Below are positions 1,393 through 53,149 of a stretch of 64,000 bases of DNA, piece by piece. A program made the position numbers and the translations under genes. Source of the stretch: an uncultured Acidobacteriota bacterium (GTDB taxonomy: Bacteria > Acidobacteriota > UBA6911). The notes beneath the pieces are model-generated. The model was given only the letters and a program-made list of their open reading frames with translations. It searched no databases and had not been told where the DNA came from. The DNA is taken from positions 160,001-224,000 of the forward strand of contig CAWEJX010000012.1 of the NCBI GenBank assembly GCA_963809485.1. Reading direction: 5' to 3'. The first letter of the stretch is position 1. Every line of letters starts with the position of its first letter.

Positions 1393-1534
1393 GCATCGGC
1401 GGAACTGCTAAAAACTTTTCACAACGCTCGATTTTTATTCATGCTCAATTTTTTGTTGCGCTCTATTTTTCTTCACGCAGATTTTCGTATCGCACTTGGA
1501 TTGCGAAAGGCCAACTCTAGGGAGGATATCTCGC

Positions 1535-28329: not shown

Positions 28330-28615
28330 AATAATCGCCAAGATGCGACACATTTCTTCATCCTGATTCTCACCGGCAAAGACGCGGTCGCAGTTGGGAA
28401 CGATATATTCAGACAACCAGAGAATCTCCGGAGAAGCATGACAGCTTCATTGCGGTTCCGGAGCATAAGTGCCAGGAGGGCGCCAGGGTGATCGCACCCT
28501 GGGAAGCGTGCCCCGCCGAGCGGCGGCGATCATGGGACGGATTTGGCGCCAGCGCCAAAACTCCGGGGTGTCGCTGTGCGTTTGTAATATTACAGGCGAT
28601 AGGAGGGTGCATCCA

Positions 28616-31600
28616 ATGCGTTCCAATGCATGCTTGGTTGTAATTGCTTGTCTGATCCTTTCGGTAACGCCAGCTTCGGCTCAAAGCGACCGAGGTGCCA
28701 TAACCGGCACCGTTTCCGATCCTGCGGGAGCCGTAATTTCCTCAGGTTCCATCGAAGCAAAGAATGTGAACACCGGAGCGGTGTATAAGGCCGCAACTAC
28801 ATCAACCGGCAATTACACTCTAACGCAACTGCCGGCGGGCTCATACCAGTTGTCGGCCTCAGTCCAAGGCTTCAAACAGTACGTCCGGACCGGTATTACG
28901 GTCCTGGTGGCTCAAACGTTGCGCATCGACATAATGCTCGAAGTGGGCAGCATTACCGAAACCATCACGGTGAATGCCGATGCTCCCCTTCTGAAGACGG
29001 AAAGCGGAGAGCTGAGCCATAATGTCAGTTCCGAAACTCTCGGCAGCCTGCCAATACTTGGATTCTCGTCCTCTATCCGCGATCCCTATGCCACGACTCA
29101 GCTAATTCCAGGCGCTCTCTTCCAGGAAAGAACTTATGTACGAATCAACGGCGCCCCCGCCAACACGCAGGGCTTCCGGGTCGAGGGCCAGGATGCCAGC
29201 AATTCCATGCGCATGACTCAGACGGCGCAGAACCAGCCCAGCGTAGATGCGGTGGAAGAGTTTGCAGTTCAGACCAGCAACTATGCCGCCGAGTACGGCC
29301 AGGCTGGAGGCGGTTTCTTCAATATCACGATGAAATCAGGCAGCAACCGCTTCCATGGAAGTGCGTACGACTATTGGATTAATGAAGCACTGAACGCGAG
29401 CACGCCTTTCCTGAACACCAAGAACAGGCAGCGTCGGAACAACTACGGATTTACTCTGGGCGGACCCGTATGGATTCCCAAGGTGTACGACGGTCACGAA
29501 AAGACCTTTTTCTTTTTCAACTTCGAGCAGTTTCGTGAAAACGTCACATACAGTAATAGCCCCTATACGATTCCAACGCTCGCCTATCGCGCGGGGGATT
29601 TCCGCCAGGCCCTGACCGGAAGAAAACTCGGAACCGATCCTCTCGGCCGCGATATCATGGAAGGCACAATATACGATCCGGCGACCGACCGTCTTGCGCC
29701 CAACGGGCAGCGTGTCCGGGATCCGTTTCAATACCAGGGAATTCCGAATACCATTGATCCTGCCCGGTTTGATCCGGTTGCGGTCAAGATCCAGGACCTG
29801 ATTCCCAAACCCACCAACTCAAACCTCACCAACAACTATCTTGTCCCTTGGCCCAGCTCCAATATCCGGACTATCCCGTCCATAAAGGTCGATCACAATT
29901 TTGGCCCGCGCTCCAAGCTGTCCGTCTATTGGTCCATGACGAGGCTGACTGCGTTGGACCAGACCCCCTTCTGCGACGGAATCCAGAGTCCTGTTACGGG
30001 TTGCAGAAACTCCTATGGCAACTCGCATACATTCCGTCTGAACTTCGACCAGACGCTGACGCCCACCACCGTCCTGCATTTCGGAGCTGGTCTGCACACG
30101 CTGGGATGGAAGGATGACACGAATTTTACCGATTTCGATCAGCTCAAGGAACTGGGTCTGCCAGGCGCTAGCGTCACTCTTTTCCCATACATTACTTTCC
30201 CGACCAGTCAGCCCCGAGGCGGCATGAAAAACATGGGCCCGCTTATGCAGAGCCATGAAGACATGGAAAAGCCGACTGCAAATGCCAGCTTGACATGGGC
30301 CAAATCCAGCCACACCTATAAATTCGGGGCTGAAATGCGCCTGGAAGGATATCCGACGCAGGTCTTTAATCCTGCCTATGGCACTTACAACTTTGCTCTC
30401 AGCCAAACCGGACTTGCCATTTCCGGTCTGAACCTCTCCGGCGGAACCATAGGATTCGCCTATGCAAATCTTCTCCTGGGGTTTGTTGACAACGGCAATA
30501 TAGGGGTCGTCAGCAGTCCCCGCATGGGCAAATCCGCGTGGGCTTTGTATGCTCAGGACAGCTGGAAGGTAACCCGCCGGTTCACTCTGGACTATGGATT
30601 GCGATGGGACTACCAGGGCTACTTAAGGGATACCTATGGCCGGATTGCGAATTTCTCCCCTACCACGCCGAACCCCTCCACCGGGGGTCTCCCCGGTGCG
30701 GTGATCTTTGAAGGCTCGGGGCCGGGTCGCTGCAATTGCGATTTCGCGCAGGTCTATCCCTATTCTTTCGGACCGCGGTTGGGAGCGGCCTATCAGATCT
30801 CGGCCAAGACAGTGCTGCGCGCCGGATTGGGTGTCATGTACGGGCAAACCGCAACCGAGAACAGGATTTCCACGAGCATTGCATCGAATAATCTGTTCTC
30901 CACCTCATCCTATGGAGATCCGAGTATATTGCTGAAAGACGGCCCACCAACCCCTGGTCCGTGGCCCAACCTGGACCCCGGCCAGTATCCGCGTCCAGGG
31001 CAGACCACTGCGCCTCCGACCGCATTTGACAATAATGCGGGGCGGCCACCGAGGATGATTCAGTGGAGCTTGAGCATTCAAAGGGAAATTTTTAAGAACC
31101 TGGTGGTTGAGATTTCCTATATCGGCAACCGGGGCGCCTGGTGGGAAGGGAACGAGCTCATCAACGTAAACGCATTGACACCGGAGCGGCTCAACACATT
31201 CGGGCTCAATATAAACAGCCCTGCCGACCAGGCGCTGCTGAAGGCCCGAATGGATTCTTCCACGGCAAAGCTGCGCGGATTCGACACACCGCCCTACTCA
31301 GGTTTTCCCATGTCATCCACCGTTGCCCAATCTTTGCGGCCCTTCCCGCAGTTCGGCACGATCAACTACCTCTGGGCTCCGCTCGGCAGAACCTGGTACG
31401 ACTCGATGCAGATTAAGGTGACAAAGCGGTTTTCCCGCGGGCTGGATTTTACCAGTTCGTTCAGCTGGCAGAAGGAACTCATGATGGGTGCAGAGGTGTC
31501 CAACGCACTGCTGACCGTTCCTGCGGCCGTTAACGATGTATTTAATCGTCCAACGAATAAGTACATCTCGAGGCTGTCACGGCCGTTCGTTTCCGTTACG

Positions 31601-32185
31601 GCAGTGAACTACACGTTCCCCAAGCTGGATGTGAATAAGGTCCTGTCGTGGGCGATCCGCGACTGGACATTTGGCGCCGTCCTGCAGTATGCCAGCGGTA
31701 TGCCCATCAAGGTTCCGACCGCAAACAGCCAGCTCATGTCATTGCTCTTCCGGGACACCTTTGCCAACCGAATCGAGGGCCAGCCGCTTTGGAAGCAAGG
31801 GGTGGACATCAACGACAGGAGCACTTACGATCCATACACGGATTTCGTTCTGAATCCGAAAGCATGGACGGATCCGCCTGCCGGTCAGTTCAGTTACTCA
31901 CCAGGCTATTACAGCGACTATCGTTATATGCGCCGCCCTTCTGAAGCCATGAGCATCGGGCGGATTTTCCGTGTCAAAGAAGGGGTTTCCCTGAATATCC
32001 GGGCCGATTTCCAGAACATATTCAACCGGCTGGTCATTCCGGATCCAACGGCAACCAATGCCGCAGCGACCCAGAACGTTAATCCCGCCACGGGCCAGAC
32101 CCAGTCCGGATTCGGATATATTGCAACAAACGGGACCGGAACAGCGCCTCGTAGCGGTATAATAGTTGCCCGAATTCAGTTCTAG
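28616..32185 (+). CDS. TonB-dependent receptor, Oar type
   Basis: Signal peptide, AQSDRGAITGTV, plug motif SVDAVEEFAVQTSNYAAEYG, QDSWKVTRRFTLDYGLRWD and terminal RIQF. Confidence 0.95.
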   Translation: MRSNACLVVIACLILSVTPASAQSDRGAITGTVSDPAGAVISSGSIEAKNVNTGAVYKAATTSTGNYTLTQLPAGSYQLSASVQGFKQYVRTGITVLVAQTLRIDIMLEVGSITETITVNADAPLLKTESGELSHNVSSETLGSLPILGFSSSIRDPYATTQLIPGALFQERTYVRINGAPANTQGFRVEGQDASNSMRMTQTAQNQPSVDAVEEFAVQTSNYAAEYGQAGGGFFNITMKSGSNRFHGSAYDYWINEALNASTPFLNTKNRQRRNNYGFTLGGPVWIPKVYDGHEKTFFFFNFEQFRENVTYSNSPYTIPTLAYRAGDFRQALTGRKLGTDPLGRDIMEGTIYDPATDRLAPNGQRVRDPFQYQGIPNTIDPARFDPVAVKIQDLIPKPTNSNLTNNYLVPWPSSNIRTIPSIKVDHNFGPRSKLSVYWSMTRLTALDQTPFCDGIQSPVTGCRNSYGNSHTFRLNFDQTLTPTTVLHFGAGLHTLGWKDDTNFTDFDQLKELGLPGASVTLFPYITFPTSQPRGGMKNMGPLMQSHEDMEKPTANASLTWAKSSHTYKFGAEMRLEGYPTQVFNPAYGTYNFALSQTGLAISGLNLSGGTIGFAYANLLLGFVDNGNIGVVSSPRMGKSAWALYAQDSWKVTRRFTLDYGLRWDYQGYLRDTYGRIANFSPTTPNPSTGGLPGAVIFEGSGPGRCNCDFAQVYPYSFGPRLGAAYQISAKTVLRAGLGVMYGQTATENRISTSIASNNLFSTSSYGDPSILLKDGPPTPGPWPNLDPGQYPRPGQTTAPPTAFDNNAGRPPRMIQWSLSIQREIFKNLVVEISYIGNRGAWWEGNELINVNALTPERLNTFGLNINSPADQALLKARMDSSTAKLRGFDTPPYSGFPMSSTVAQSLRPFPQFGTINYLWAPLGRTWYDSMQIKVTKRFSRGLDFTSSFSWQKELMMGAEVSNALLTVPAAVNDVFNRPTNKYISRLSRPFVSVTAVNYTFPKLDVNKVLSWAIRDWTFGAVLQYASGMPIKVPTANSQLMSLLFRDTFANRIEGQPLWKQGVDINDRSTYDPYTDFVLNPKAWTDPPAGQFSYSPGYYSDYRYMRRPSEAMSIGRIFRVKEGVSLNIRADFQNIFNRLVIPDPTATNAAATQNVNPATGQTQSGFGYIATNGTGTAPRSGIIVARIQF

Positions 32186-32266
32186 GCCGCGCTGCAAAAA
32201 TTATCTCTCGCTGTGGCGGCCGAGGAACGTTTCTCGAGGGAGAGCAAGTTCACTGAATGGATCGTC

Positions 32267-32437
32267 TTATTGGGACCGGCCAATAAAGTTACACGGCCAA
32301 TACCCAAGCCCCGGAGGGGCGTAACATGACAGCGCCCCGGGCGCAAGCCCGGGGTTAAGTGGATGGGAGAACGAAGCCCGGCAGGGGCGTCACATGGTTT
32401 TTGGGTAGTGTCCCCTGTGATTTGCGGGACCCAATAA
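32267..32437. repeat. REP-like palindrome cluster bounded by imperfect inverted repeats
   Basis: agccccggaggggcg / ccccgggcgcaagcccgggg / agcccggcaggggcg, flanked by ttattgggacc...ggacccaataa. Confidence 0.5.
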
Positions 32438-32548
32438 TTAGCGCCTCAATCCTTCCGAAATGGTGTGCGTATTCACTCCGAATCAGAAAGAACAAAGGAC
32501 ATGGACGATAACCGGGAAGGGATCTACGGGCCTGCCAAGGAGAAAAAA

Positions 32549-34275
32549 ATGAAGGGAATGGGTCGAAGTGCGAGAGGTGTTTTGTGGATAGCCGCCTTTA
32601 TTTTCAGTTCCACGCTGCTGGCGCAAGAGGCAAAATTTGCGGTACTGAACCCGAGGGGCACACAACCGCCGATACGACTTGTCCCGATGGCGCCACGGTT
32701 GGATACACTGGACGGCAAGACGATATACATCGTCAATGTGGGCTTTGGGGATACATTCCTGCCCGAAACACTGAAGGTGCTCGCGCAGCGATACCCCAAA
32801 ACCAATTGGGTTCTCAAAAGGAAAATCGGAAGCTATTTTGACGATGATCCGAAACTATGGGCCGAAATCAAGGAAAAAGGGCATGGAATGATAATGGGAG
32901 TCGGGCATTGAAGCACCTGTTCGCCGGCGGTCGTCGGCCATTGCCTGACAGTGGAAAGACTCGGTCTACCTACGGCTCCCGTGATCACGCAACGGTTCGA
33001 AGAACTGGTCAAGACCATTGCCTACAAAAAGGGGATGCCAAACCAACGATTTGTTTTTGTCCCCCATCCTGTCGCCGGCAGATCTCCCGAATTATGCCAT
33101 CGGTATATGGAAGGCAATGATCCGGTGACGAAAAAGCCTATCGTGGAGGAGTTTTTGGCGGCTCTGACAAAACCGCTGAATCCTGAGGAGAAAAAGACGG
33201 GATTTTTGCAGAGACCTCCTCGACCGAGGCTCATCGAACCGGATACAGCCGAAAACCTGCAGCGTCTCTTTGCAAAGAATGGGTGGACCGACGGTATTCC
33301 CATAGTCCTTCCGACCGAAGAAAGAGTGGCTTTGATGCTGAAGAACACGAGCCGCAAACCGGACGAGGTTGTCGGTACCATGCGCCCGTCGCCTCCCCAT
33401 GAGGCCTGGGAGTTCACCGTCGAAATGGTTGCCACGAATGCCGTAATGGCCGGTGCTAAACCGGAATATATTCCGGTGATTCTAGCCCTGGCTTCGACCG
33501 GAGTGACTTCACTTTTCAGTTCAACCACGTCTTTTGCGCGCATGGTTGTCGTCAATGGCCCTATCCGAGAACAGATCAGTATGAATTCGGGACTTGGCGC
33601 TATGGGGCCTTTCAATGAGGCCAATGCCACGATTGGACGAGCTTGGACCCTGATATCCAAAAATCTCGGTGGCGGAGGTACGCCGGGAGAAACCTACCTC
33701 GGCAGTCAAGGGAACAATCTTAATTACAACAATATTTGCTTTGCCGAAAGGGAGGACGCGCTTCCCGCCGGCTGGAATCCCGTTCACGTTCAAAAGGGCC
33801 ATAAGGCTGGAGAGAGCTACGTCAGCACCTTCACCGGCTGGAGCCTCATCAACTATGGCGGTTTTGCACTCCCGCACCATCAGTTTATCAAACGAATGCT
33901 GACCGGTTTGCTGGCCAGCGGGACCGGCTCCGGCAGCCAGGCCACTCTGTTGCTTGATCCGATTACGGCACGGGACCTCAGGAATGATGAGGGCTTCGAC
34001 ACAAAGGAAAAGCTAAGTGACTGGCTGATGAAGAATGGAACATCGCCCGCGCAGCAGTACTGGGCACGCCACTCCGATGAGCTGAAGAAAGGCAAAGAGG
34101 GGATCGAGCCCTTTGCGTCATGGCTGAAGTACCCAGAGGACGCCTTCATACCCGTTTCAAACTTCAGGCCGGAGACGCCGATCGAGATTATCGTTGTGGG
34201 GGGGAAACGAATGCTTTTCTGATGGCGGGGGATTTTCGTTATGTCTCGGGCGCCTCTGTGGATAAGTGGAGGTAA
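32549..34275 (+). CDS. Exported UGSC-like selenoprotein 1 (Sec at TGA 32909-32911; 1-nt indel in G-run ~34200)
   Basis: ORFs 32465-32911 and 32951-34222 are in the same frame and read GVGH-U-STCSPAV across the TGA. SECIS hairpin, signal peptide and GWTDG.PI.LPT.ERV are present. The C-terminus SVDKWR is restored by adding one G. Confidence 0.9.
32912..32938 (+). promoter_or_regulatory. Bacterial SECIS element
   Basis: TGA-N11-GCCGGC-GGTC-GTCGGC. Confidence 0.85.
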
Positions 34276-34505
34276 GGCTCGATTCGTTTGCGAACCAAAT
34301 TGTAATTGCGATCACGACTTCTCGGTGCAGATTTCATGGGGTCGCCTGCTTTTGACCGGGTAACGAGGTAGGAAACTGTTTATCAGCAAAGCAGCTGGAT
34401 ACGGAAGACACGGAGCAAGCGCGATCCACGGATAAAAACCCTGGCTTTTATCCGCGTTCTTCTGTGTCCTTCCGTATCCCTGCTTTTTCGCGATGGAGGC
34501 TTTCG

Positions 34506-35078
34506 TTGAATAATAAACAACTCTACTGCTTTTGGGCAGCTTCGATAATAGTTGCAGCCAGTCTAAGCCCGTTAGGCGCTCAAACCCCCGGTTCCTCACC
34601 GGCGGCCCCCGCGTCGACAGGCGTTACGATTACGGGAATCGTCGAATGCGGGCAGGGCTACACTTCCCACGAACTGTATGACATGAAAATTACCGTGACG
34701 GATGTGGTGCGCGGTGAAGCAGCATGGATGCGGATCAAGGAAGCGAGTCCATCAAACAAAGCTGCGGAGGCGGGATTCGAGTATGTCCTGGCCCGCGTGA
34801 AATTTGAATATTATGCGAGAGGAACACCCGGCCTGTGTATCCATCAACTCAATCCACAGCAATTCAGCGCTGTTTCTTTGGAAGGCCAGGATTATCAGAT
34901 TGCCCAGGTAGTGCTTCCGAAACCGGACTTGCGCAAAGCCATGAAGTCGGGTGAGACAGTCGAAGGTTGGATTGCGTTTTCTGTGTCTCAGCAGGACAAA
35001 GGTCCTCTCATGACATATTCTGCCGATCAGGGTGGGGCGATCGAGCACGGCGGAGCGAAGTGGTTTTTGCTTCGTTGA
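34506..35078 (+). CDS. Small secreted partner protein 1 (DUF4352-like Ig fold)
   Basis: GGAGG plus TTG start, signal peptide, ECG...YD.KI....V.RG, EYVLARVKFE and GETVEGWIAF; four paralogs in the cluster. Confidence 0.75.
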   Translation: MNNKQLYCFWAASIIVAASLSPLGAQTPGSSPAAPASTGVTITGIVECGQGYTSHELYDMKITVTDVVRGEAAWMRIKEASPSNKAAEAGFEYVLARVKFEYYARGTPGLCIHQLNPQQFSAVSLEGQDYQIAQVVLPKPDLRKAMKSGETVEGWIAFSVSQQDKGPLMTYSADQGGAIEHGGAKWFLLR

Positions 35079-35294
35079 GTTTGGGCCTGTGATAAGGCAT
35101 GCTGGGCAGGATGACAGCTTGGAAGTCTCAAGGCAGCCGAAGGCGTCGACCTGAGGTGAATGGAATGCGGCCATTTTGGGGAGAGCGGATTTGTCCTGCT
35201 CCTATCCATGCGAGAGCGAGACCAATGGCGTAGCTAACAAAATCCTGAAGCACTCAACAATTCGTTATATGCTGATTTAAGGAGGACTAGAGCA

Positions 35295-37023
35295 ATGAAA
35301 AGCCGAATTTGTTGTTTTTTGGCCGGAATGTTTTTAGCAGCCATTTTTCTGGTCGGGAATGCCATTGGCTGCGGAGAAGCCAAGGTCACGGTAGTAAATC
35401 CCTCGAGGCACACCTCCCCCGATACGCCTGGTGCCGATGGCGCCTCGTTTGGATACCCTGGACGGCAAAACGATCTATGTCATTAACATCGGGTTCGGGG
35501 ATACATTCCTGCCTGAAGTGCAGAAGGTGATGGCCGAGAAATATCCCAAGACGACCTGGATATTCAGGAGAAAGGCGGGAAGGGACTATTTCGACGACGA
35601 TCCGAAGCTTTGGGCCGAAATAAAGGAAAAAGGCCACGGAATGATTATGGGCGTGGGCCATTGAAGCACGTGCTCGCCGGCGGTCGTCGGCCACTGTGTA
35701 ACGGTAGAAAGATTGGGTGTGCCTACTGCGCCAGTTGTTACTCAGAGATTTCAAGAACTGGTGAAGAACTATTTCCTGGAAAAAGGGAATGCCGAAGCAG
35801 CGGTTTACCTTTATTCCGCATCCTGTCGCCGGCAGGCCCCCTGAGTTGTGTAATCAATATGTAAGGGGCAAGGATCCGTTGACTGGAAAACCGATCGTTG
35901 AGGAGTTTGTCGCTGCGCTGACAAACCCGCTGACTGCGGAGGAAAAGAAAACCGGATTCCTGATGAGGGATCCGCAACCACGGCTGTTAGAGCCAAACAC
36001 TCCAACGGCCCTGACAGATCTCTTTGAGAAAAACGGCTGGACCGACGGGCTTCCTATAATACTTCCCACCGAAGAGAGAGTCGCCAATATGCTTAAAGGC
36101 ACCAGCCATAGGCCGGATGAGATTGTGGGCACCATGCGTCCCTCTCCGCCCCATGAGGCCTGGGAATTCAACGTGGAGATGGTTGCCGCCAATGCCGTGA
36201 TGGCTGGAGCAAAACCGGAGTATCTTCCCGTTATCCTTGCATTGTCATCGACAGGCGTAACCTCGCTTTTCAGTTCTACAACATCTTTCGCGAGGATGGC
36301 GGTTGTCAATGGGCCTATCATTACGGAAATCGATATGAATGGCGGGATAGGAGCCATGAGTCCCCTGAACAAGGCCAATGCCACGATCGGAAGAGCGTGG
36401 ACATTGTTATCGAGAAATCTTGGGGGAGGAGCCATTCCCGGGCAGACTTACCTGGGGAGCCAGGGAAACAATCTCAACTACAACAATGTTTGTTTCCCTG
36501 AAAAAGAAGACAAATTGCCTGCGGGATGGAAACCCTTATCCGAGCAGAAAGGGTTCAAGCACGGGGAAAGTGCTGTCAGCACGTTTACCGGATGGGAAAT
36601 CGTTCATGGGGCCCTCGGGATGGGGGGTAACAAAGAAGGGCTTGCCCGGGCAGTAGCCCGATATTCCACGGGTGCGTATCGGCAGGTTACCTTGTTGCTG
36701 GATCCAATCGTGGCCAGTGATTATAAAGAGCTTCGACGGATTCCAAACCAAGGAAGCGCTCAGCGAATGGCTCCTGAAAAACACTCCTTCACCCGCTCAG
36801 GGGTACTTGCAGAGATCACCCCGATGAGGTGAAACAGGCCAAATCGGGTGTTGAGCCCTTTGCGACATGGTTGAAATATCCGGAAGGAGCACTCATCCCG
36901 GTATCAAGCCTTCGGCCTGAGGTTCCTGTCGAGATAATCGTGGTGGGAGGTGAGACAAATGCCTTCATGCAGATGGGGGATTTCAGGCACGTATCGACCG
37001 CCTCAGTGGACAAGTGGAGATAG
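35295..37023 (+). CDS. Exported UGSC-like selenoprotein 2 (Sec at TGA 35662-35664; at least 4 frameshifts, assembly error or pseudogene)
   Basis: GVGH-U-STCSPAV with SECIS. Fragments 35295, 35431, 35789 and 36829 tile paralog 1 through to SVDKWR. Confidence 0.8.
35665..35691 (+). promoter_or_regulatory. Bacterial SECIS element
   Basis: TGA-N11-GCCGGC-GGTC-GTCGGC. Confidence 0.85.
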
Positions 37024-37095
37024 AGGCAAATAGTCATGACCGGGAAAGAGGCAGACAATGCCTCTTTCCCATTTCATACAAAAGGAGAGGTTAAT

Positions 37096-37666
37096 ATGAA
37101 ACACAGGATTTCTGCTCTATTAGCTTGTTTGATTTTGGCGGCCTTTGCTCGGGTTGGATACCGCAGCAGCACAAGGTCTGTCTCCCTCCAATGCGGCGCC
37201 GATCGGCACGTCGATAAAAACTCAGGTGGAATGCGGGGAGCGAGCAGGTTCCATGGAGCCCTACGATGCAAAGATTGCTGTTCTCCAGGTTTTGCGCGGC
37301 AAGGAGGCATTGGATCGCATAAAGGCGGCAAACCCCTCCAGTCAGCCTCCGAAGGCCGGCTTTGATTATGTTGCTGCGCGCGTGGCGTTTCAGATGAATG
37401 CGATTCTGGCGCCGGGAAACAAGACTTTTGAATTGGCAAGAAAGATGCAGTTTGTTGCGCTCACGGCAGATGGGAACGAGCAGGAGCCTCCTTCGGTGAG
37501 TCCACCTTCGCCGGAGCTTCATCGGACAGTGCGCTCAGGTGAGTCTGCGGAAGGCTGGATTGTTCTGTTGGTGGAACAGTCGAATAAGAAACCCGTGATG
37601 TTCTTTGATCCTGCGGCTGGCGGTGCCATGGGAGGCGGTAAAGTCCTGTTCTTCCAGCTTTACTGA
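37096..37666 (+). CDS. Small secreted partner protein 2 (frameshift in signal region ~37150)
   Basis: RBS plus MKHRISALLACL, then SPSNAAPIG...ECG...YDAKI..LQVLRG...GESAEGWI. Confidence 0.72.
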
Positions 37667-37870
37667 GTACCGGGGTTCGGTCTGCAAATCCATCGAGGCT
37701 CTTAGGAGAGATCCGGTCCAATCCGACAGGATGTCCTCCAACGCAATGCTCCTCTGTTTCTGGATATTTTCCAGCGAAATGACATTCGTTTCCGGCATGA
37801 CCGTCCATACCTACACTCGCTGTCCGATCATGGCGGCGGTTTTATGTCTCAGAGATGTTGCATTTCCTGA

Positions 37871-38159
37871 GTCAGGCACCTCCGGTAAAGCCGGAGGCTT
37901 GAAAGATTGGAACCGCTCAAAGCGGTTGGAGGAGTTCCGCCGGTCTTGAACGCTGACTTACGCGGGCAAAAGCCGATGAGGCGCTCCGCGCTGGCCCCTG
38001 CGGGGATCGGAAGCGCCTCATCGGCTTTTGCTCGCCGACCCTCGCCGAACAAATCGGCGTGTGTCAGCGCTTTTATCAGCGTTTCTCAGCGTTTCAAAAT
38101 ACCGAGCTGTCAAACTCTTTGAGTCTCCCGGCAGAGCCGGGGGGTTACCAATGTAATTA
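37871..38159. mobile_element. IS200/IS605-like element, copy C, with internal inverted-repeat insert
   Basis: Same ends as copy A; perfect 20-bp IR at 37966-37985/38012-38031. Confidence 0.75.
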
Positions 38160-38288
38160 TTTCGGAAAAATGCCGCTGCCTGAATTTTTTTGGCAGAAAA
38201 GCAAAGAAGTCCTGGATATAGGATTTATCCACGAAATAGGATATCAGTTGTCCGCTCATGGCAGAACAGGCTGGTCAGGGAGGATGCG

Positions 38289-39908
38289 ATGAAAGCAAGA
38301 AAAGGTATTTTATTGTTTCTTTCGGGTGTGAGCACATTGGTATTCATCCTGCTTGCCTCTAAAGCAGCACAGGCAGAAAACATCCGGGCGCTCGATCCTC
38401 GCGGCATCCCGCCGACTGTGGAGAGGATTCCGCTGAGTCCGCGTCTGGCCGGCATCAAGGGCGCCAGGATCTACATTGTGATGTCCTGGCCGACCAATTC
38501 CGCTTTCGATAGTGTCGTCAAAGATCTGGTGCTGCTCCTGAAGGAGCGTGGCGCCAAAGAAGTAACCATCAAGCAGCGCAATGCCCGCTATTCCGAGGAC
38601 GATCCGAAACTATGGGATGAGATGAAGCAGATGTGCGATGCATTTATGTATGTCGCGGCACCGTCCTCTTCGACTACGTCCTATGCTTTTCAATGGAGCG
38701 CCAAACTTGAAAAGATGGGCCTGCCTGGCACCGTTGTGAATTTCGACGATCTGAACAGCGTCGGCGACACTACAAGCAGCCGATGGGGAGCGATGCTGCG
38801 CCGTTCGTCCTTCGTTTATCCACCCGAAACCATGAATAAGCAGGCTTATCCTGAGGCATTATCCCGTGCGATCGATAATCTGACCAGGCCCTTGACTCCG
38901 GAGGAAAAGGCCACCGGCGTAATGCAACCCAAGCCGCGGCCGGAAATTTACGTCTCCGGTGATTTTGATCAAATTCAAAAATCGTATTACGACGCCGGGA
39001 TGACGGATGGGTTGCCGATCATTCCGCCAACAGCCGAACGCGTGGCTGCGATGCTGAAAGGCACAGGCCATAAGCCCGACGAAGTTGTTGCCCAGGCATT
39101 GATGCCTGAAGGGCTGGGCGTTACCGTTAAACACGTGGCGATCAATGGCGTAATGGCCGGATGCCTGCCGGAGCAAATGCCGGTTTTGCTTGCGACTATT
39201 GAAGCGTATCAAAAGAACAATTTGAATTCGGTTTTGCGGTCAACAAACCCTTTTTCCTTCATGCAGGTCGTGAACGGACCGATCGCCCAGCAGCTGAAGA
39301 TGAATAGCGGCACTGGCGCGCTCAGCCCCGGCAATCAGGCAAACGCCTCAATGGGGCGCGCTCTGCGGCTGTTCATCCTCAATCTCGGGGGCGGCGTGCC
39401 CGGAGTCAACCTGATGGCCGTAATAGGCAATGTCTCGAGTTATTCCTTTATGTTTGCGGAGAACGAAAAGGAAAGCCCATGGGAACCGCTCAGCGTCAGT
39501 CTCGGGTACCAGAAGAACGATAGCACTCTCACATTTTTTTTGGGAGGCTGGGCGCACTCCGGTAATTACGGACCTGGCTTTGCCGGTGAGGTTGCGCTTG
39601 ATAGCGTTGCGCAGGACATGTCACCGTATCAAATGACCTCCGGCGCGACTGTGATTATTTCTCCCAAGTTCGCGCAAGATCTCCAGAGACGTGGAATGAC
39701 CAAAGCTGACGTTGAAAGCTATTTACAGAAGCATTCCACACGCGCGCCGCGCAAAGGCCGGCCAGCCGAAGCCGCTCAAAGCGGGCCGGTGCCGGTGTTT
39801 CCGGAAGGCACCGTCAAGATCATTGTGGCCGGCGGAGATGCCAGTTCTATGATGCAGGCGTGGAGCATGTATCGCCCGATAATCGTATCGATCGACAAAT
39901 GGCGGTAG
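38289..39908 (+). CDS. Exported UGSC-like paralog lacking Sec/Cys (UxxC replaced by SxxT)
   Basis: Uninterrupted ORF homologous to both halves of the selenoproteins (PRG.PP, DDPKLW, TDGLPIIPPT.ERV, SIDKWR). Confidence 0.88.
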   Translation: MKARKGILLFLSGVSTLVFILLASKAAQAENIRALDPRGIPPTVERIPLSPRLAGIKGARIYIVMSWPTNSAFDSVVKDLVLLLKERGAKEVTIKQRNARYSEDDPKLWDEMKQMCDAFMYVAAPSSSTTSYAFQWSAKLEKMGLPGTVVNFDDLNSVGDTTSSRWGAMLRRSSFVYPPETMNKQAYPEALSRAIDNLTRPLTPEEKATGVMQPKPRPEIYVSGDFDQIQKSYYDAGMTDGLPIIPPTAERVAAMLKGTGHKPDEVVAQALMPEGLGVTVKHVAINGVMAGCLPEQMPVLLATIEAYQKNNLNSVLRSTNPFSFMQVVNGPIAQQLKMNSGTGALSPGNQANASMGRALRLFILNLGGGVPGVNLMAVIGNVSSYSFMFAENEKESPWEPLSVSLGYQKNDSTLTFFLGGWAHSGNYGPGFAGEVALDSVAQDMSPYQMTSGATVIISPKFAQDLQRRGMTKADVESYLQKHSTRAPRKGRPAEAAQSGPVPVFPEGTVKIIVAGGDASSMMQAWSMYRPIIVSIDKWR

Positions 39909-40141
39909 CGGCAAGAATATCTTGAATGTTGTCAGCCCGGAAGCAGAGAAGGCTTGCAAAATCAGGGCAGACGGCACAATGTATGCCCTCCAAGGGTAGG
40001 CCGCACAAAGCGCGGCCAACCCTTTGCTGTGGCGCCCCGTTGGGGCCCTGCCCCCACCCTGGGGGACTTATCCGCCCTTAACCGCTCGAAGCCAACCTCG
40101 CCGCAAAGGCGCAAGCAGGCTTACGCACTCCAAAGACAGCT

Positions 40142-41872
40142 TCACCGCCATTTATCGATAGAGGCGCTGGCAACATGGCTGAAATCCATGGCCATCCAGT
40201 AGGGATTGGTTCCCCCTCCGACCACAATCACATTGATGGGCGGATTCCCTCCCTTCCGCCTGACAAAGGGAGATACGGGCAAAGCAGCGCTCTGCGGTAG
40301 CTTCAGCCACGATGCAAACGGTTCAACACCGGCTTGAGCCTTTTTAAGATCGTCAGGACGGCTGGCCCAATAGTGCCACGCGGGCCAGGTTGCGTTTTTC
40401 TCGAGCCACTCGGCCAGCTTCTCTTTGGTATCGAAGCCTTCGACTTCCTTCATATCTCTCGCGGTCACTGGGTCGATCAGCACGGTCGCCGTACTTCCCC
40501 ACCCGCCTCCGCTCATGAAGAAACTCATCAGCGCATTCTTCATGATCTCATGATGCTGTACCGGAAGGTATGCGCCGTAATCGAGAACGCTCCAGCCGCT
40601 GAATGCGCTGACGACGCTCTCTTGCGGCTTGAAGCCTTTCTGAACATGCAAGGGCTGCCAGCCTGCGGGCAGATCCTCTTCCGTTTCCGGGAAACAGATA
40701 TTATTGTAATTCATGCTGTTGCCCTGGCTTCCGAGATACGTCTCGCCAGGAATGCCGCCTCCTCCGAGATTCTTTGAAATCAGCGTCCACGCTCTGCCTA
40801 TGGTTGAGTTTGCTTCATTAAACGGGCCCATGGCCCCGATCCCCGAGTTCATCTTTATCTGCTGCGCGACAGGCCCGTTTACAACGACCATCCTCGCGAA
40901 AGAGGTGGTCGAGGTGAACAGGGAGGTGACTCCCGTCGAGGAAAGAGCCAGGATAACGGGAAAGTACTCGGGTTTTGCACCTGCCATGACCGCATTTGCG
41001 GCGACCATCTCAACTGTGAATTCCCACGCTTCGTGTGGAGGGGACGGCCTCATCGTGCCGACTGTTTCATCGGGCTTATGACTCGTTCCCTTCATCATCT
41101 CAGCGACCCTTTCCTCGGTGGGCAGCTCTATGGGCAGTCCGTCTGTCCACCCGTTGTCGTTGAAAAGCTTCTTCAGGTTGTCCGGAGTGTCGGGCGAAAG
41201 CAATCGCGAACGAGCACCGCGCGACACAAACCCGGTTTTCTTGTCGTCGCCGGACAAAGGCTGGGTAAGGCCTGCAATGAACTCCTGAATCAGCGGCTTG
41301 CCCGTTACCGGATCGTTACCTTCGAGATATTTACGGCAGACCTCGGCAGGTCTTGCGGAGATGGGGTGTGGGACGAAAGCGAATCGCATCCCGGGCATCC
41401 CTTTTTTGAATGCGATGGTTCTTACCAGATCGGTGAATCGCTGAGTGATGATAGGCACGGTGGGGATTCCGAGCCTCTCTACCGACAGGCAATGGCCGGC
41501 GACCGCCGGCGAGCATGTGCTTCAATGACCTATGGCCATGATCATGCCGTGCCCCTTTTCTTTTATCTCTTGCCAGAGTTTGGGGTCGTCGTCGAAATAA
41601 CTGCCGATCTTTTTCTTATAAACCCAGTTTGTTTTCGGGTAATGCGCAGCCATGACCTTCTGGATTTCCTGGACAAAGGGTTCCGTCAAAGGATAATTCG
41701 TGTCAACGATGTAGATTGTTTTTCCATCCAGGCTGTCCAGGCGCGGGGCCATGGGGATCAGGCGAATCGGAGGCTGTATGCCTCGCGGATTCAGCACTGA
41801 AATTTTTTGAGCATCTGCTGCAAATGAAGCGCAGGCGATGAGAATCGCCAGAAAAGGCATGTGCATTTTCAT
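40142..41872 (-). CDS. Exported UGSC-like selenoprotein 3 (Sec at 41522-41524; 576 aa)
   Basis: ORFs 41522-41929 and 40142-41458 are in frame and read AIGH-U-STCSPAVAG. SECIS, GGAGG RBS and signal peptide are present. Confidence 0.92.
41495..41521 (-). promoter_or_regulatory. Bacterial SECIS element
   Basis: TGA-N11-GCCGGC-GGTC-GCCGGC (perfect stem). Confidence 0.85.
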
Positions 41873-42149
41873 AGGAACCTCCGAACCCCATTTTCGCACA
41901 AAACAGTAAAGCAGCCATGCAGATTTCACAGATTTTACGAAAGACCCCGGAAAACAAGGCCCGCTTGCTTCATAGGGGCAATCTGTGAATTCTGCGGTTG
42001 TCTTTAGCTTTTGGAAAAATCAGGGGATTTGGGCCGGCCCGGCACTAGTATGTGGGTAGGCTGCAAATTTCTATATCGATAGTGCATTTTCATAGTAAAA
42101 TGGGGCTCGCGCAAAATGCAGCGACACCCGCAGGGCATTATTGTGTCCT

Positions 42150-42393
42150 TTGCGAAAATCACCTGAAACAGACCCAGTCGGGAATTGAACCTTTCGTGTC
42201 CTACTTGAAAGCCGGGAACATGGCATCACAGCCGGTATCGTGTTTCATTCGCAGACCTCCATCAGGCGCCCCCGCGTCAGCGCGGCATATGGCCGCCGGT
42301 ATGGAATGGCGGAGCAGGATTCGGGCTTGTGTAATAGGAAATCTGATTTACGGATCAGTGTCTGATCTGCACGAATGGTCGAAAGGGACGTAA
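42150..42393 (+). pseudogene. Remnant of a UGSC-like gene C-terminus
   Basis: LKQTQSGIEPFVSYLK...QPVS resembles KQAKSGVEPFATWLK...IPVS, and GNLIYGSVSDLHEW resembles GDFRYVSGASVDKW. Confidence 0.55.
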
Positions 42394-42420
42394 ACAATTC
42401 ATCATGAAAGGAGAACCGGC

Positions 42421-44229
42421 ATGGACCCTGCCGAGAATGAAAAGAAGAGCACGAGTAGAAGAGCATTTTTCAAGGGCATAGCCGCCGGCGCCGCAGGTGC
42501 AAGTTTGTTGAGTCCGTTTGCCCGGGAAGCCGCGCCCAGTTCCAGTCCGCAGAAAGCAAAGGAGGAGTTGATTACGGTTTTTAACCCTCTCGGACAACCT
42601 CCTCCCCTGGCTTTACTGCCTTTGGCGCCTCGCCTCGATACCCTAAAAGGCAAAACAATCTATGTCGTGGATACTAAATTCCCGGCCAGCAAGACCTTTT
42701 ATGAAGAATTCGTCAGAATTCTCAAGGAGAAATATCCCGATACGACCTGGATTCCGAGAGATAAGATAGGAAGTTATTTTGACGATGATCCAAAACTGTG
42801 GGCCGAAATCAAGGAAAAGGGCCACGGAATGATCATAATGGTAGGTCACTGAAGCACCTGTGCGCCGGCGGTCGCCGGTCATGCGCTAACCGTGGAAAAG
42901 CTGAAAGTGCCCGCAGTGCCCATAATCACCCAGACTTTTAACCGATCTGTCAAGAATGCTGTTTACGTCAAGGGAATGCCCCTCATCCGATTTGCCTTTG
43001 TCCGCCACCCCGTCGCATATACGCCGCTCGCTGACTGCAGGGCGGCCATATTGGGCAAGGATCCTGTGACCGGCAAACAGGTTCTTGATGAAGTTGTTGC
43101 GGGGCTGACCAGTCCTTTGACTGCGGAGGAAAAGAAGACGGGTTTCATAGAAAGGCCGCGGGACAGGTTTGTAAAGCCCGACACGGCCGACAACCTGCAG
43201 AACCTGTTTCGCGACAGCGGATGGACGGACTACCTGCCGATCATTCTTCCGACGGAACAGAAAGTGGCCGAGATGCTCAAAGGCACCAGCCACATGCCCG
43301 ATGAACCGGTAGGCGAGATGCGCCCATCTTCTCCTCACGAAGCGTGGTCCTTCGACGTACGGAAAGTTGCAATCAATGCGGTGATGGCGGGCGCAAAACC
43401 GGAATTTCTCCCGGTAATTCTGGCGATTGCATCCTCGGGGGTCACCTCGCTCTTCACTTCTACAAATTCCTTCACCTCCATGGTGGCCGTAAATGGACCC
43501 ATACGCAAAGAGATAAACATGAACATGGAGATAGGCGCGTTGGGTCCCTTTAATCACGCTAATGCAACCATTGGAAGAGCCTGGACACTGATGTCGAAGA
43601 ATCTGGGCAATGGAGGTGTTCCCGGGCAGAACTACATGGGCAGTCAAGGGCAAGGCCATAGCTACACCAATCTCTGCCTTGGAGAAAAAGAAGAGCGTTT
43701 GCCGCCAGGGTGGAAACCCTTTCATGTACAGAAGGGATTCAAGCCGGAAGAGAGTGTTGTAAGCATGTTCGACGGCTGGAACTGGTCCAACGTTGGGGGA
43801 TTTGAGAGTACTAAGGATCGATCCATCAAACGGTTTTTCGAAAATAATACGCAATGTTGCGGCGCCACCCTGGTTTTAGACCCACTCGTGGCCGACATGC
43901 TCTACAAGGAACTCGGGTACAAAACCAAGGAGCAGTTTCAGGACTGGCTGAACAAGAGCGTTGGAACGGTCAAAGATGATTATTGGGGGGCGATCTCCGG
44001 CCAGGGCGGAGCTGAAGGACCCGGCGGCCGTCGAGCGAAAGAGTATGAACAGGCCAAAGCAGGGGTTGAGCCCTTCGCAACATGGCTGAAATATCCTGAA
44101 GGAGCCGTACTCCCGGTGTCCAGAAATGTGCAGGTCAATATACTCGTGACTGGAGGAGAGACGAATCCCTATTGGCAGGGTGGGAGTCTCAGATACATCG
44201 CAAGTGCATCCGTCGACAAATGGAGGTAG
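42421..44229 (+). CDS. Tat-signal UGSC-like selenoprotein 4 (Sec at TGA 42850-42852; 602 aa)
   Basis: SRRAFFKG signal; in-frame MVGH-U-STCAPAVAG; SECIS; ends ASVDKWR. Confidence 0.92.
42853..42879 (+). promoter_or_regulatory. Bacterial SECIS element
   Basis: TGA-N11-GCCGGC-GGTC-GCCGGT. Confidence 0.85.
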
Positions 44230-44283
44230 GCGGGATGTGCAGGGGGGGCACGGCTCCCCCTGGTTTCCTGAGGGGGAGATCCC

Positions 44284-44853
44284 ATGAGAACAAAGATGAT
44301 TTTGGGTATGCTGGCAGCGCTGGCTGCCTCGATGCCCGCTATGCGGGCACAGTCACGAGAACCCGGTTTCTCTCCATTGAATCCCGCGCAGGTTGGAACC
44401 CGCCTGGGAACTGTTATCGAATGCGGCTTCGGCTATAGTCCCCATGAAAAATATGACGTCAAATTGACTCTTCTGGAAGTTCTGCGCGGAGATAAGGCAT
44501 CGGAGCGGATTAAAGCAGCAAGCGCATCCAATCAACCTCCGAAGGCTGGGCTCGAGTATATTCTTGCCCGCGTCAAGTTTGAGTTTTTTGCCAAAGGGGC
44601 GCCGGGGAATTGTGTTCATGAACTGAGACGGGAAGAATTTGCGGCCTTCTCCGCCGATGGGCAAGAATACGAGGCCGCCATGATTGCACCTCCCCAGCCG
44701 GGGCTCAGCGCGAAGCTCAATTCAGGCGATTCCTTCGAGGGCTGGCTTGCCTTCCAGGCGCCGCAAGGCGGGAACAAGGCATTGCTGAGGTTTGTCGCCA
44801 GCGTCGGAAGCGCCGTCGAACAGGGAGGGCAAGTGTGGTTTCAGCTTTATTGA
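44284..44853 (+). CDS. Small secreted partner protein 3 (DUF4352-like)
   Basis: Signal peptide; SPLNPA, ECG, YDVKLTLLEVLRG, EYILARVKFE and GDSFEGWL. Confidence 0.78.
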   Translation: MRTKMILGMLAALAASMPAMRAQSREPGFSPLNPAQVGTRLGTVIECGFGYSPHEKYDVKLTLLEVLRGDKASERIKAASASNQPPKAGLEYILARVKFEFFAKGAPGNCVHELRREEFAAFSADGQEYEAAMIAPPQPGLSAKLNSGDSFEGWLAFQAPQGGNKALLRFVASVGSAVEQGGQVWFQLY

Positions 44854-44861
44854 ATGGGCCC

Positions 44862-45171
44862 TAGCTAGTTTCTGTCGCGAAACTCGGTTCTTGCGAGGAA
44901 ACCGGATTTTTCAACAGTCGATAGGATATTTGATATTATGTAGAAGCCGGGAATTGGAGCCAGGCCGCGTAGCGGTCAGCTGAGTTTAGCCAGGCCTTTT
45001 AAGGCTTGGATCTAAAGGAGTTAGGTTTTCCGTCGCCTAGCAACGGTTGAATCTCAGGCGGCGCTACGCGACGCGCTATTCTCAATACCATGATTCCCGG
45101 CCTTGAAAGGCCGGGCTAAAATCATAGTGCCGCTATGCGGCGCAAACCAGTTTCGCGACAGAAACTAGCTA
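44862..45171. mobile_element. MITE with perfect 23-bp terminal inverted repeats carrying a REP-like doublet
   Basis: tagctagtttctgtcgcgaaact (44862-44884) / agtttcgcgacagaaactagcta (45149-45171). Confidence 0.75.
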
Positions 45172-45204
45172 TGGAAACCCAATCCAAAGCAAGGAGAAAC
45201 AACC

Positions 45205-45765
45205 GTGAAGCTCAGAAGAACACTCGCATGGCTTGTTCTGGCATACCTGGTTACAGCTCCTGCCTTACTGCAGTCGCAAATACCAGGCTACTCCCCGCTC
45301 AGCCCGGCAGCCGTCGGCGCCCGGGTGGAGACCGTGATCCAATGCGGCGGAGAGCCTTGTGATGTGAGAATCTTCCTTCTCGAGGTTGTGCGCGGCGAGA
45401 AGGCCTGGCAACGTATCCAAGCGACAAATTCGTCCAATACTCCGCCGGAAGGCGACCTAGAATATGTCCTTGCGCGTATGAGGTTCGAGATGTCTTCGAG
45501 GACTCCGGGAAGCAAGAGCTACCCGATAAGATCGGGACAGACAGGGCAGTTTTTCGCTTTCTCGGCAGAGGGCCAACCCTATGAGACGCCTGCTCTGGTG
45601 TTGCCCAAACCGGAACTGGAGGGCTTGCTCCGTTCCGGCGAATCGATTGAGGGCTGGATTGCTTTCCGTGTACTCAAGAGCGAAGCCAAGCCGCTGATGA
45701 GCTTTGATCCGGCATCCGGGGCGGCTAAAAGCCAAGGCAAGCTCATATGGTTCCGGCTCCAATAA
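45205..45765 (+). CDS. Small secreted partner protein 4 (DUF4352-like)
   Basis: Signal peptide; SPLSPA, QCGGEPC, LLEVVRG, EYVLARMRFE and GESIEGWIAF. Confidence 0.78.
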   Translation: MKLRRTLAWLVLAYLVTAPALLQSQIPGYSPLSPAAVGARVETVIQCGGEPCDVRIFLLEVVRGEKAWQRIQATNSSNTPPEGDLEYVLARMRFEMSSRTPGSKSYPIRSGQTGQFFAFSAEGQPYETPALVLPKPELEGLLRSGESIEGWIAFRVLKSEAKPLMSFDPASGAAKSQGKLIWFRLQ

Positions 45766-46150
45766 ATAGCGGTTCCGGCAAGTCAACGAAAGATGAAATG
45801 ATTCGGCGGCCGGTGAGGACTTTCAATTCGCATCAAGAGGAAAAACACTGAAAAGGCGAAGTGGAAGAAAAGCCTGCACGGCGAGAAAGGCAATCGAATG
45901 GGATGTCCGCTCGTTGCGGGGCGCGGATGCACATCCTCTGCGCGATAAATCCTCCCTGGCGCCATTCGGAAAATTTTGAATTGCCTGGGATTGCCTTCCA
46001 AACCGCCGCCTGTTTTCCGGGTTCTGACATCACCTTAATGCCGGCTGTGTCGCCCGGCTGAAGCGAAGCAGATGAAAAGAGACCTATGGATGAGTGCATG
46101 GAATTTATCGGATTCACCAACAGATTTCGCAATGGAAAGGAGAAATAACG

Positions 46151-51862: not shown

Positions 51863-53143
51863 CTATATTGATTGCGGACGAGACAGGACCTGAGCTGCCA
51901 GGAATTCAGAAACCTTCCGGCGCATGGCTTCCGGATCCCAACCTCGGGCGTCAACCATGTCGGCAACCACTGGAAACACCGGAATCCCGGCCCCCTCGAG
52001 GGCACGTTCAATAAAACGATTGCCTGTGGCTGCCGGCCTTGTTCCCAGAGGGGTCAGCACAAGAGCAGCATCGATTCTATGTTGCTTCGCCTGATGGATA
52101 ATCCATTCGTTGGCCCATGGCGGATTGTGCAGCTGCTCGTTCATGCTGACGGTGCGGCTGGCGAGCGCCAGCAGGGGGTCGTCGAGGCCATAGCGGATAT
52201 ATCCGTCGGGTCCAAAGGCCAGGTACATGGACCATACAAAGACAGCTCCGAACTCCTCTTCGAAAGCCGTATAAAAATCCGTGTCGTGCCAAAGCCCGGC
52301 GCCTACCCACATCAGGCGCAGGCGTTCGCCGCTGCAGGCCGCTACTCCCTGCCTTACGCGGTCGCGGATCTGGTCGCGGAAGGTACGGGCATGTTCAACC
52401 GCCCAGTCGCTTCCCCGTTCCCATTGTGCCGCCATAACATTGGTCACCTGTTCGTGCATGCGGACCGGCGTTTTGGCTGCGGAGCAAATCATCTGACAGG
52501 CCTCTTCGAAGTACTCTTCCTGGCGGTTGACTCTTTCCATCAGGTCGCGAAGACGATCAAGTTGAAAGGACCTTCCCGTGATTCTTTCCAATGCCTTGAT
52601 AAGGTTTTGAAGCTGTATCACCGTAAGCTTTAGCCGGTGTTCTTCAAAAAGCTCGCGCCAGCGATAACGGCTGAGTTCCCACCAGCGCTGCGGCAACTCG
52701 GTGGCTCCCGGATTATCGAGGAAAAAGCATTCAGAGCCAAACGCATCGGCCCAGATCCCAAAAACCCTCTGCAGGCAGTCGCACGTGAGTCGCGCGCACA
52801 GCAATGCCGGCTTGGGCAGTCCGCCCCACGGAGCACGATCCGGATCATTTGCCAGCGTGGATGCGGCCGCCAGACTGCAGTACCGGCATAGCCCTTCATG
52901 AAATCCCAGAGAATTCAGGATATCGAGGTAATAGGCCGAAAGCCGTTTGGCTGAAATTATTGCGGCCCACCACTGGTTGCTCACAGCCGGCACGTCCATC
53001 ACATGAAACAGTTCAAATGGCATATCCGCCTGGACAATGGCGTAAGGCCGCTGTTTTTCAAATACATCTTTCCGAAGCCGGGCAAACCAGGACTTTTGGT
53101 GTTCGGCGGCTGCAAGGGTGCAATCGAGTTGTTTCTCTGCCAT
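51863..53143 (-). CDS. 2-hydroxyacyl-CoA dehydratase-family subunit (HGD-D)
   Basis: LCRYC, GGLPKP...TCDC, ERLRLMW.G and C-terminal ADMVDAR.W. Confidence 0.8.
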   Translation of the reverse strand: MAEKQLDCTLAAAEHQKSWFARLRKDVFEKQRPYAIVQADMPFELFHVMDVPAVSNQWWAAIISAKRLSAYYLDILNSLGFHEGLCRYCSLAAASTLANDPDRAPWGGLPKPALLCARLTCDCLQRVFGIWADAFGSECFFLDNPGATELPQRWWELSRYRWRELFEEHRLKLTVIQLQNLIKALERITGRSFQLDRLRDLMERVNRQEEYFEEACQMICSAAKTPVRMHEQVTNVMAAQWERGSDWAVEHARTFRDQIRDRVRQGVAACSGERLRLMWVGAGLWHDTDFYTAFEEEFGAVFVWSMYLAFGPDGYIRYGLDDPLLALASRTVSMNEQLHNPPWANEWIIHQAKQHRIDAALVLTPLGTRPAATGNRFIERALEGAGIPVFPVVADMVDARGWDPEAMRRKVSEFLAAQVLSRPQSI

Positions 53144-53149
53144 AGTTAC

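Follow-up and report, generated by a model that had tools for sequence, protein, structure and literature searches.

The UGSC family (PF24696; NF041046; Zhang and Gladyshev, 2008) is a published selenoprotein family that carries its selenocysteine (Sec) in a UxxC motif. The 2008 report gives 255 Sec and 21 cysteine sequences for it in the GOS data and suggests a thioredoxin-like fold (PMC2398784), and a 2026 review lists the family as well (PMC13188914). The present work concerns a 64,000-nucleotide stretch of DNA (hereafter the window) from an uncultured Acidobacteriota bacterium, corresponding to positions 160001-224000 of contig CAWEJX010000012.1 (C12:160001-224000) in a genome of 6.04 Mb and 21 contigs. 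The window contains four genes for UGSC-fusion proteins of about 580 amino acids (aa), each with an in-frame TGA codon. From the sequence we predict that these four codons encode selenocysteine, and we place the probability of this at about 0.93.

Sec in the UGSC domain is already known, and the window genes, taken alone, add a further member to an established selenoprotein family. They resemble the described family in their N-terminal match, in having Sec within UxxC and in being Sec-dominated. They differ from it in their length (~580 rather than ~150 aa), in an extra C-terminal domain of ~370 aa (the C-domain), in the reading U-S-T-C in the window copies, in being mostly exported by prediction and in occurring in tens of copies per genome. 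A "UGSC/Unknown_1" fusion is named in Figure S1A of the 2008 paper (PMC2398784); judged by this name, it may be the same ~580-aa architecture. Neither the named family nor the membership of the genes in an expansion of ~42 loci had been noticed in the original prediction.

On the decoding side, the closest described counterpart is the SelB-dependent selenocysteine insertion sequence (SECIS) of E. coli fdhF. The fdhF hairpin is characterized by its GGUC loop and its spacing from the UGA. The present genes share with it an in-frame UGA, a stem-loop at a fixed short distance and G-U in the apical loop, and they share with classical bacterial Sec decoding in general a genome that contains tRNA-Sec, SelA, SelB and SelD. 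In contrast to fdhF, the hairpins here are short (stems of 5-8 bp) and vary by subfamily, one subfamily being without a clear one.

With respect to numbers, published selenoprotein-rich genomes include Syntrophobacter fumaroxidans (39 selenoproteins), Desulfosediminicola (43-46), the Olavius delta-1 symbiont (57) and a metagenome-assembled genome (MAG) of Methylomirabilota (63) (PMC12013277, PMC13188914). The organisms so described are mainly anaerobic Thermodesulfobacteriota, Synergistota and Clostridia (PMC13188914), and the deep-Sep test set includes a single acidobacterium, with 3 known selenoprotein genes. The genome studied here resembles the selenoprotein-rich bacteria in having dozens of predicted selenoprotein genes and differs from them in its lineage, Acidobacteriota, and in that one family contributes at least 36 intact genes, whereas the published sets are spread over many families. 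Within the literature searched, which left outside it a groundwater-MAG study with 63 selenoproteins, we found no report of the exported ~580-aa fusion, of a C-domain lacking a solved match, of a genome whose aligned loci all lack Cys at the site or of an expansion of this size.

In-frame TGA codons and read-through frames

The four TGA codons lie at 32909-32911 (+), 35662-35664 (+), 41524-41522 (-) and 42850-42852 (+), where the original prediction had placed them, and all four copies have them at the same aligned codon of the motif GH-*-STC[SA]PAV[VA]GH. Copy 1 (32549..34275, +), a gene with a signal-peptide leader, reads through from the ATG at 32549 to place the residue at U121. Copy 3 (40142..41872, -), also with a signal-peptide leader, reads through from the ATG at 41872 to an intact protein of 576 aa with U117, and copy 4 (42421..44229, +), with a leader resembling a twin-arginine (TAT) signal (SRRAFFKG), reads through from 42421 to an intact protein of 602 aa with U144. 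These residue numbers agree with those first assigned. The accompanying claim that the frame remains open past the TGA held for copies 3 and 4 and for copy 1 up to its last ~26 residues; in copy 2 (35295..37023, +) the frame of this assembly extends for 59 codons only. The paralogue that had been cited as an uninterrupted equivalent of both halves (from 38190 or 38289 to 39908, +) is indeed a single frame of 572 aa, with SSST in place of USTC. This non-Sec paralogue (38289..39908) scores 32.2 bits against PF24696; its redox motif is absent and the C-domain motifs are retained.

The recurrence of TGA at this site goes well beyond chance. A tblastn search of the own genome with copy 3 gave 72 matches, and 56 of the alignments cover the U codon. 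Forty-two of these have a stop there, and all 42 stops are TGA. The remaining 14 read Ser (4), Ala (3), Leu, Gly, Arg, Thr, Met and Asn (1 each) or a gap (1); Cys occurs in 0/56 of the aligned loci. Thirty-six of the 42 TGA loci are intact-like, by which we mean that a single frame encodes at least 85 aa of the N part together with at least 380 aa of the C part.

Among the 37 database sequences that have a residue at the site within a 55-row alignment, 8 carry Cys (P0132 reads GH-C-STC) and none carries Trp, so the Cys homologues sought by the original prediction exist and the Trp that would have contradicted it is absent from this set. The other residues are Leu (10), Ser (9), Met (4), Thr (2), Ala (2), Gly (1) and His (1). 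The best full-length matches, of ~590 aa (P0010-P0124), mostly read GQ-L-DTC, with Leu at the Sec site and the +3 Cys kept; four of them are labelled Dehalococcoidales or Chloroflexi, and most are leaderless and start at the mature domain. A Leu-type paralogue, GQ-L-DTN, is also encoded in the own genome at C12:100479-102215. In database MAG records, TGA together with a hairpin was found in 22/22 alignments from 19 loci. Their labels are Acidobacteriota, Acidobacteriaceae, Desulfatiglandales/Desulfatiglans, delta proteobacterium and Burkholderiales/betaproteobacteria, and four records carry the label Bordetella parapertussis. Among the named records, the nearest are MAGs of uncultured Acidobacteriota.

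In the database, the proteins closest to these (65-93% identity) are fragments of 415-483 aa that start just past the TGA. Public gene calls thus treat the codon as a genuine stop, with two genes per locus, one for an N-terminal protein of ~13-16 kDa and one for a separate protein of ~440 aa, and open reading frames (ORFs) of translation table 11 with GTG starts shortly past the TGA can be drawn to match. Fragments of this kind are the signature of gene callers that stop at Sec codons. The supposed downstream starts lie inside a helix of the N-domain, and the site is not a gene boundary: positions 2-157 of the Pfam UGSC profile align straight over the TGA, and the fold modelled with AlphaFold2 (see below) crosses it as well. 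In 42 loci the two halves share a frame that exactly one TGA interrupts, always at the same aligned codon, and some homologues run on without interruption and have Cys, Ser or Leu there. We consider real stops highly improbable. The selenocysteine reading, in contrast, is supported by the domain spanning the TGA and the Cys homologues, and by the hairpins, the Sec machinery and the standard genetic code described in the next section.

SECIS-like hairpins and decoding machinery

A SECIS-like hairpin of the form GCCGGC-GGUC-G[C/U]CGG[C/U] follows the UGA in each of the four window copies, at +15..+30, as a selenocysteine codon would lead one to expect. In copy 1 (32923..32938, +) it reads GCCGGC-GGUC-GUCGGC and begins 11 nt past the UGA, and copy 2 has the same sequence (35676..35691, +). 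Copy 3 (41495..41510, -) has GCCGGC-GGUC-GCCGGC, and copy 4 (42864..42879, +) has GCCGGC-GGUC-GCCGGU; their folds rank at 0.011 and 0.007, respectively, among the windows of their own genes. Across the genome, the minimum free energy of +6..+42 averages -12.0 kcal/mol at the 36 intact Sec sites, compared to -7.0 in other windows of the same genes. The site falls within the top 10% of its own gene's folds at 20 of the 36 Sec sites (binomial p 1.5e-11) and in only 1 of 12 non-Sec paralogues (Mann-Whitney p 4e-4 versus the Sec sites). The non-Sec paralogue at 38289 forms no stable hairpin at the corresponding position (-5.0 kcal/mol, rank 0.69). The fold signal appears only when the fixed interval +6..+42 is compared with the remaining windows of each gene; whole 60-nt folds compared with dinucleotide shuffles were not significant (z +0.9 to -1.2).

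The stem sequence is wholly different between subfamilies, with its position kept. Hairpins of the other subfamilies are UCGGC-CGUGA-GCCGA, GUGGUGGG-GUU-CCCACCAC and GUGUUCA-GUC-UGAAUAC, and the loops GGUC, CGUGA, GUU and GUC all contain GU. The five loci of the GD-U-G[GS]C-TK subfamily have their TGA at C20:516694, C1:76226, C12:47701, C12:124738 and C12:73234, with no clear hairpin 11-16 nt past the UGA. In the best consensus fold of this subfamily the UGA is itself part of a stem (positions 1-5 paired with 21-25), and the subfamily may have a different SECIS geometry. An Rfam search of 31000-46000 at a permissive E-value returned no SECIS family, only noise and two sub-threshold matches to Acido-Lenti-1. 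These latter matches, at 32307-32354 (-) and 45096-45142 (+), score 34.4 and 28.5 bits against a gathering cut-off of 37; they are intergenic and flank the selenoprotein cluster.

The machinery for Sec insertion is complete. The genome has a tRNA-Sec (70.6 bits; reported by ARAGORN as SeC with anticodon tca), selB (391 bits), selA (565 bits) and selD (345 bits), all above curated cut-offs. The original prediction had also held that the code is not recoded genome-wide, and this stands: a single tRNA of 48, the tRNA-SeC, reads UGA, and TGA closes 1132 of 2711 long frames, being the commonest ordinary stop codon of the genome. The code is therefore standard, and genome-wide reassignment of TGA to Trp or Gly was rejected on the tRNA set and stop usage. 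Two further observations concern the machinery itself. The selD gene (C8:80982-81905, +) contains one in-frame TGA, from which selenophosphate synthetase (SelD) is probably itself a selenoprotein. A second Rfam match to tRNA-Sec at C20:1138408-1138497 (+), with 50.9 bits against a cut-off of 47, may be another long-arm tRNA; ARAGORN finds one tRNA-SeC only.

These data bear on whether the UGA might be read without selenocysteine, by a near-cognate Trp or Cys tRNA, or be decoded conditionally, giving truncated and full-length forms according to selenium supply. Sec insertion in bacteria is generally incomplete, which makes some truncated product plausible, and the five GD-U-GxC-TK loci without a clear canonical hairpin would suit such decoding. 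Yet the complete Sec machinery, the hairpins conserved in position at Sec paralogues and absent from non-Sec ones, and the dominance of Sec in the published data for the family all speak for selenocysteine. Moreover, neither Cys nor Trp occurs at the site in the 56 aligned loci, which argues that UGA is selected as such. We give decoding without selenocysteine, or by selenium supply, as little credence as genuine stops.

By the selenocysteine reading, the short GC-rich hairpin, with GU in its apical loop and placed 11 nt past the UGA, would recruit SelB with Sec-tRNA(Sec), and the product would be a single polypeptide of ~576-602 aa.

Fusion architecture and expansion of the family

Copies 1, 3 and 4 match PF24696 over their N-terminal ~150 residues, with 85.1, 94.7 and 67.3 bits, respectively (gathering cut-off 25). 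Distant paralogues in the own genome carry the literal GD-U-GSC-T, and also U-G-T-C, at the same aligned codon, and by row reading a Cys stands at +3 in 33 of the 36 intact Sec paralogues. The architecture is a ~580-aa fusion of a flavodoxin-like UGSC domain with the ~370-aa C-domain; 52 of the 55 aligned family members have the PF24696 domain and no other. An AlphaFold2 model of copy 3, computed from the 55-sequence alignment with U shown as C, has a predicted local distance difference test score (pLDDT) of 92 and a predicted template modelling score (pTM) of 0.91. Residues 47-210 form a flavodoxin-like/receiver-like alpha/beta domain that aligned best to flavodoxin-like, receiver-like and Rossmann-like chains, with VIA Z scores of 8.3-11.0 that mark generic matches; no thioredoxin-fold entry was among the 50 best rows listed for these residues. 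In the model U117 lies between the strand 109-115 and the helix 120-133, whose first turn includes C120. A UxxC at such a strand-to-helix turn occupies the classic site of a selenol/thiol redox pair.

The C-domain belongs to no Pfam or NCBIfam family, in the window proteins and in the 55 aligned relatives. Its invariant residues include T243, D244, P251, T252, N332, N355, R360 and E396. Modelled alone it reached a pLDDT of 91.7. Foldseek against the PDB gave no match at E<=1e-3 for either the full model or the C-domain, the wide VIA alignment of the C-domain gave a best Z of 5.8, under the typical chance level, and a PDB sequence search with the family profile returned only noise at E>0.1. On the modelled structure, then, the C-domain appears to have no relative among the solved structures of the PDB. 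The protein Atlas yielded only unnamed or auto-named clusters of ~400-430 aa with no Pfam family, which are probably fragments of the same fusion family. A stand-alone UGSC gene also occurs on the same contig (C12:92787-93303, -); it has one TGA and the best Pfam score of the genome (129.5 bits, match C12:92896-93303), and the last ~40 profile positions are in another frame, which may reflect a further indel.

Within the genome, PF24696 matches 58 places, 40 of them with exactly one TGA by row count, and it matches none of 14 control genomes. The subfamilies are distinguished by the motifs GH-U-S[ST]C, G-U-D[SG]C, GH-U-SxC, GD-U-G[ST]C-T (the literal UGSC) and SW-U-GAA. The last of these is found in three tandem paralogues (SW-U-GAA-T; TGA at C4:342223, 344594 and 346598), which have Sec without the +3 Cys and are missed by PF24696. 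All 18 sampled genomes of the same genus contain 10-44 matches (E<=1e-20), nearly all of the listed ones with one TGA, and a single-contig genome of the genus (6.9 Mb) contains 35. In other genera of the class, 2 of 12 genomes have one weak match each, and across the phylum a UGSC match was seen in 15 of 200 other genomes, at 1-2 per genome and mostly as open frames of ~190-270 aa. By sequence search, the expansion is specific to the genus among the genomes searched.

In the window, tblastn of copy 3 shows copies 3 and 4 to be intact, and frameshifts affect the other two. In copy 1 a 1-base deletion near 34197 moves the last ~26 codons to another frame. Copy 2 has three frame changes downstream of 35401 by the same search and, compared with a 96%-identical sister MAG, four single-base insertions at ~35399, 35767, 36735 and 36809. 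We compared the window with contigs from four public runs that contain close relatives. The frame-restoring indel at 34197 (a G inserted behind it) was found in all four runs, those at 35767, 36735 and 36809 in three of four each, and that at 35399 in two of four. Because other assemblies and runs carry the frame-restoring indels, the frameshifts are private to this assembly and are probably, as the simplest account, consensus errors; strain-specific decay may be an alternative source. Copy 2 was not taken as a pseudogene, its indels being absent from the sister MAG and, site by site, from two or three of the four runs.

That the TGAs are themselves nonsense mutations in decaying pseudogenes, or assembly errors, could draw on these frameshifts and on a relic fragment of a further family copy at 42106..42300 (+; 40% identity to copy 3 residues 509-573 by tblastn), yet the same codon is TGA in 42 loci of this genome, in nearly all listed matches of the 18 genus genomes, the single-contig genome included, and in four other groups of MAGs, and the frameshifts are absent from other assemblies and the TGAs are not, so this least credible of the alternatives is effectively refuted by conservation already.

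Predicted export, neighbourhood and possible biological meaning

A hydrophobic leader was called in 33 of 36 Sec paralogues compared to 6 of 12 non-Sec paralogues; copy 4 fell narrowly under the leader threshold (1.77 versus 1.8) but has the twin-arginine-like motif. The encoded protein would follow the order export leader (Sec-type or TAT-like), flavodoxin-like UGSC domain and conserved C-domain. We propose that these proteins are periplasmic redox enzymes in which UxxC would alternate between the selenol/thiol and the selenenylsulfide state. Binding of substrates, diversified among the paralogues, would fall to the C-domain, with each paralogue serving a different catabolic or respiratory gene cluster. 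The broader picture is a tentative one, to which we assign slightly less than even odds: a genus-wide family of exported selenoenzymes, with 10-44 genes per genome and at least 36 intact ones here, in which the UxxC module of UGSC is joined to a domain for catalysis or substrate binding that matches no solved structure, the site being always Sec and never Cys in this genome.

Several observations weigh against the reading that we favour, in part or as a whole. Sixteen of the 36 intact Sec sites lie outside the top 10% of folds. A clear hairpin is missing from the usual offset in the five GD-U-GxC-TK loci, of which four are intact-like, and the one in the three SW-U-GAA genes is weak, a 7-bp stem rich in A and U that is capped by a GUC loop. 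Within subfamilies, stem changes are mostly one-sided (G-C to G-U) with few double compensatory ones, and the hairpin overlaps the conserved peptide PAVAGH, so that the covariation comes mainly from the comparison between subfamilies. At the protein level, Leu, Ser or Met takes the place of Sec in many full-length homologues, and such variants keep the C-domain motifs; C-domain function is therefore not strictly dependent on the redox pair. The NCBIfam model NF041046, an equivalog for a single-domain UGSC protein of ~147 aa, was not reached (46.8, 70.6, 66.5 and 13 bits against a cut-off of 125), and the window proteins (557-602 aa) are not equivalogs of the stand-alone UGSC protein. The leader calls come from a crude hydrophobicity heuristic rather than a trained predictor. 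The function of a periplasmic UxxC selenol/thiol enzyme is one that we purely infer. Finally, a Pfam scan that covered 100 of the 200 ORFs listed around 28 loci showed no common partner and heterogeneous contexts.

The families in the flanking ORFs so scanned are flavoproteins, aldehyde:ferredoxin oxidoreductases, major facilitator superfamily (MFS) transporters, amidohydrolases and C_GCAxxG_C_C proteins. Within 6 kb of the 56 loci, a TonB-dependent receptor lies at 8 and a FAD_binding_2 gene at 10. In the window, a gene for a TonB-dependent-receptor-like outer-membrane protein lies upstream of copy 1 (28469..32185, +; OMP_b-brl_4, 490.7 bits), and a small secreted DUF4352-like gene lies downstream of it (34464..35078, +; PF11611 below cut-off), with paralogues at 37145-37666, 44284-44853 and 45205-45765. 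The DUF4352-like gene is not a conserved operon partner, as it lies downstream of only 5 of 48 intact family genes.

The neighbours in the window comprise TonB-dependent-receptor-like genes, FAD_binding_2 flavoproteins, GntR regulators and hydrolases. The five FAD_binding_2 genes, at 6804-8471 (-), 24216-25871 (-), 25971-27596 (-), 46094-47836 (+) and 61675-63351 (+), two of them with TAT-signal matches, suggest by sequence a repertoire of exported flavin reductases or dehydrogenases beside the selenoproteins. Two adjoining genes of the 2-hydroxyglutaryl-CoA dehydratase D-component family (HGD-D; 51863-54331, -) lie beside an MFS transporter gene. A TonB-dependent-receptor-like gene at 1496-5199 (+) is split into overlapping ORFs (1496-3526 and 3391-5199) that jointly cover positions 1-312 and 340-833 of the OMP_b-brl_4 profile, and this split is probably another single-base assembly indel. 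With respect to expression, contigs of a soil metatranscriptome library extend across the TGAs of copies 1 and 2 into both halves of each gene, which is a weak hint that they are expressed. The habitats given here are the labels of runs that contain close relatives, and such runs share at most 0.30 of the sampled words.

If the broader reading is true, no larger expansion of a single selenoprotein family would have been described in a prokaryote, the genome would be among the most selenoprotein-rich of bacteria, and the family would point to an uncharacterised selenium-dependent redox chemistry of the periplasm. Standard gene callers split or truncate these genes, the nearest entries being "hypothetical protein" fragments of ~440-460 aa, and this class of exported selenoproteins is consequently invisible in the annotations of Acidobacteriota, Desulfatiglandales and Burkholderiales MAGs. 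The family supplies dozens of natural SECIS variants, natural replacements of Sec by Cys, Ser or Leu at one site and a confidently modelled domain without a solved relative. Some 40 Sec genes of one family would alter the picture of which bacteria are selenoprotein-rich, and they suggest that the supply of selenium could matter for carbon turnover by Acidobacteriota of wetlands and soils.

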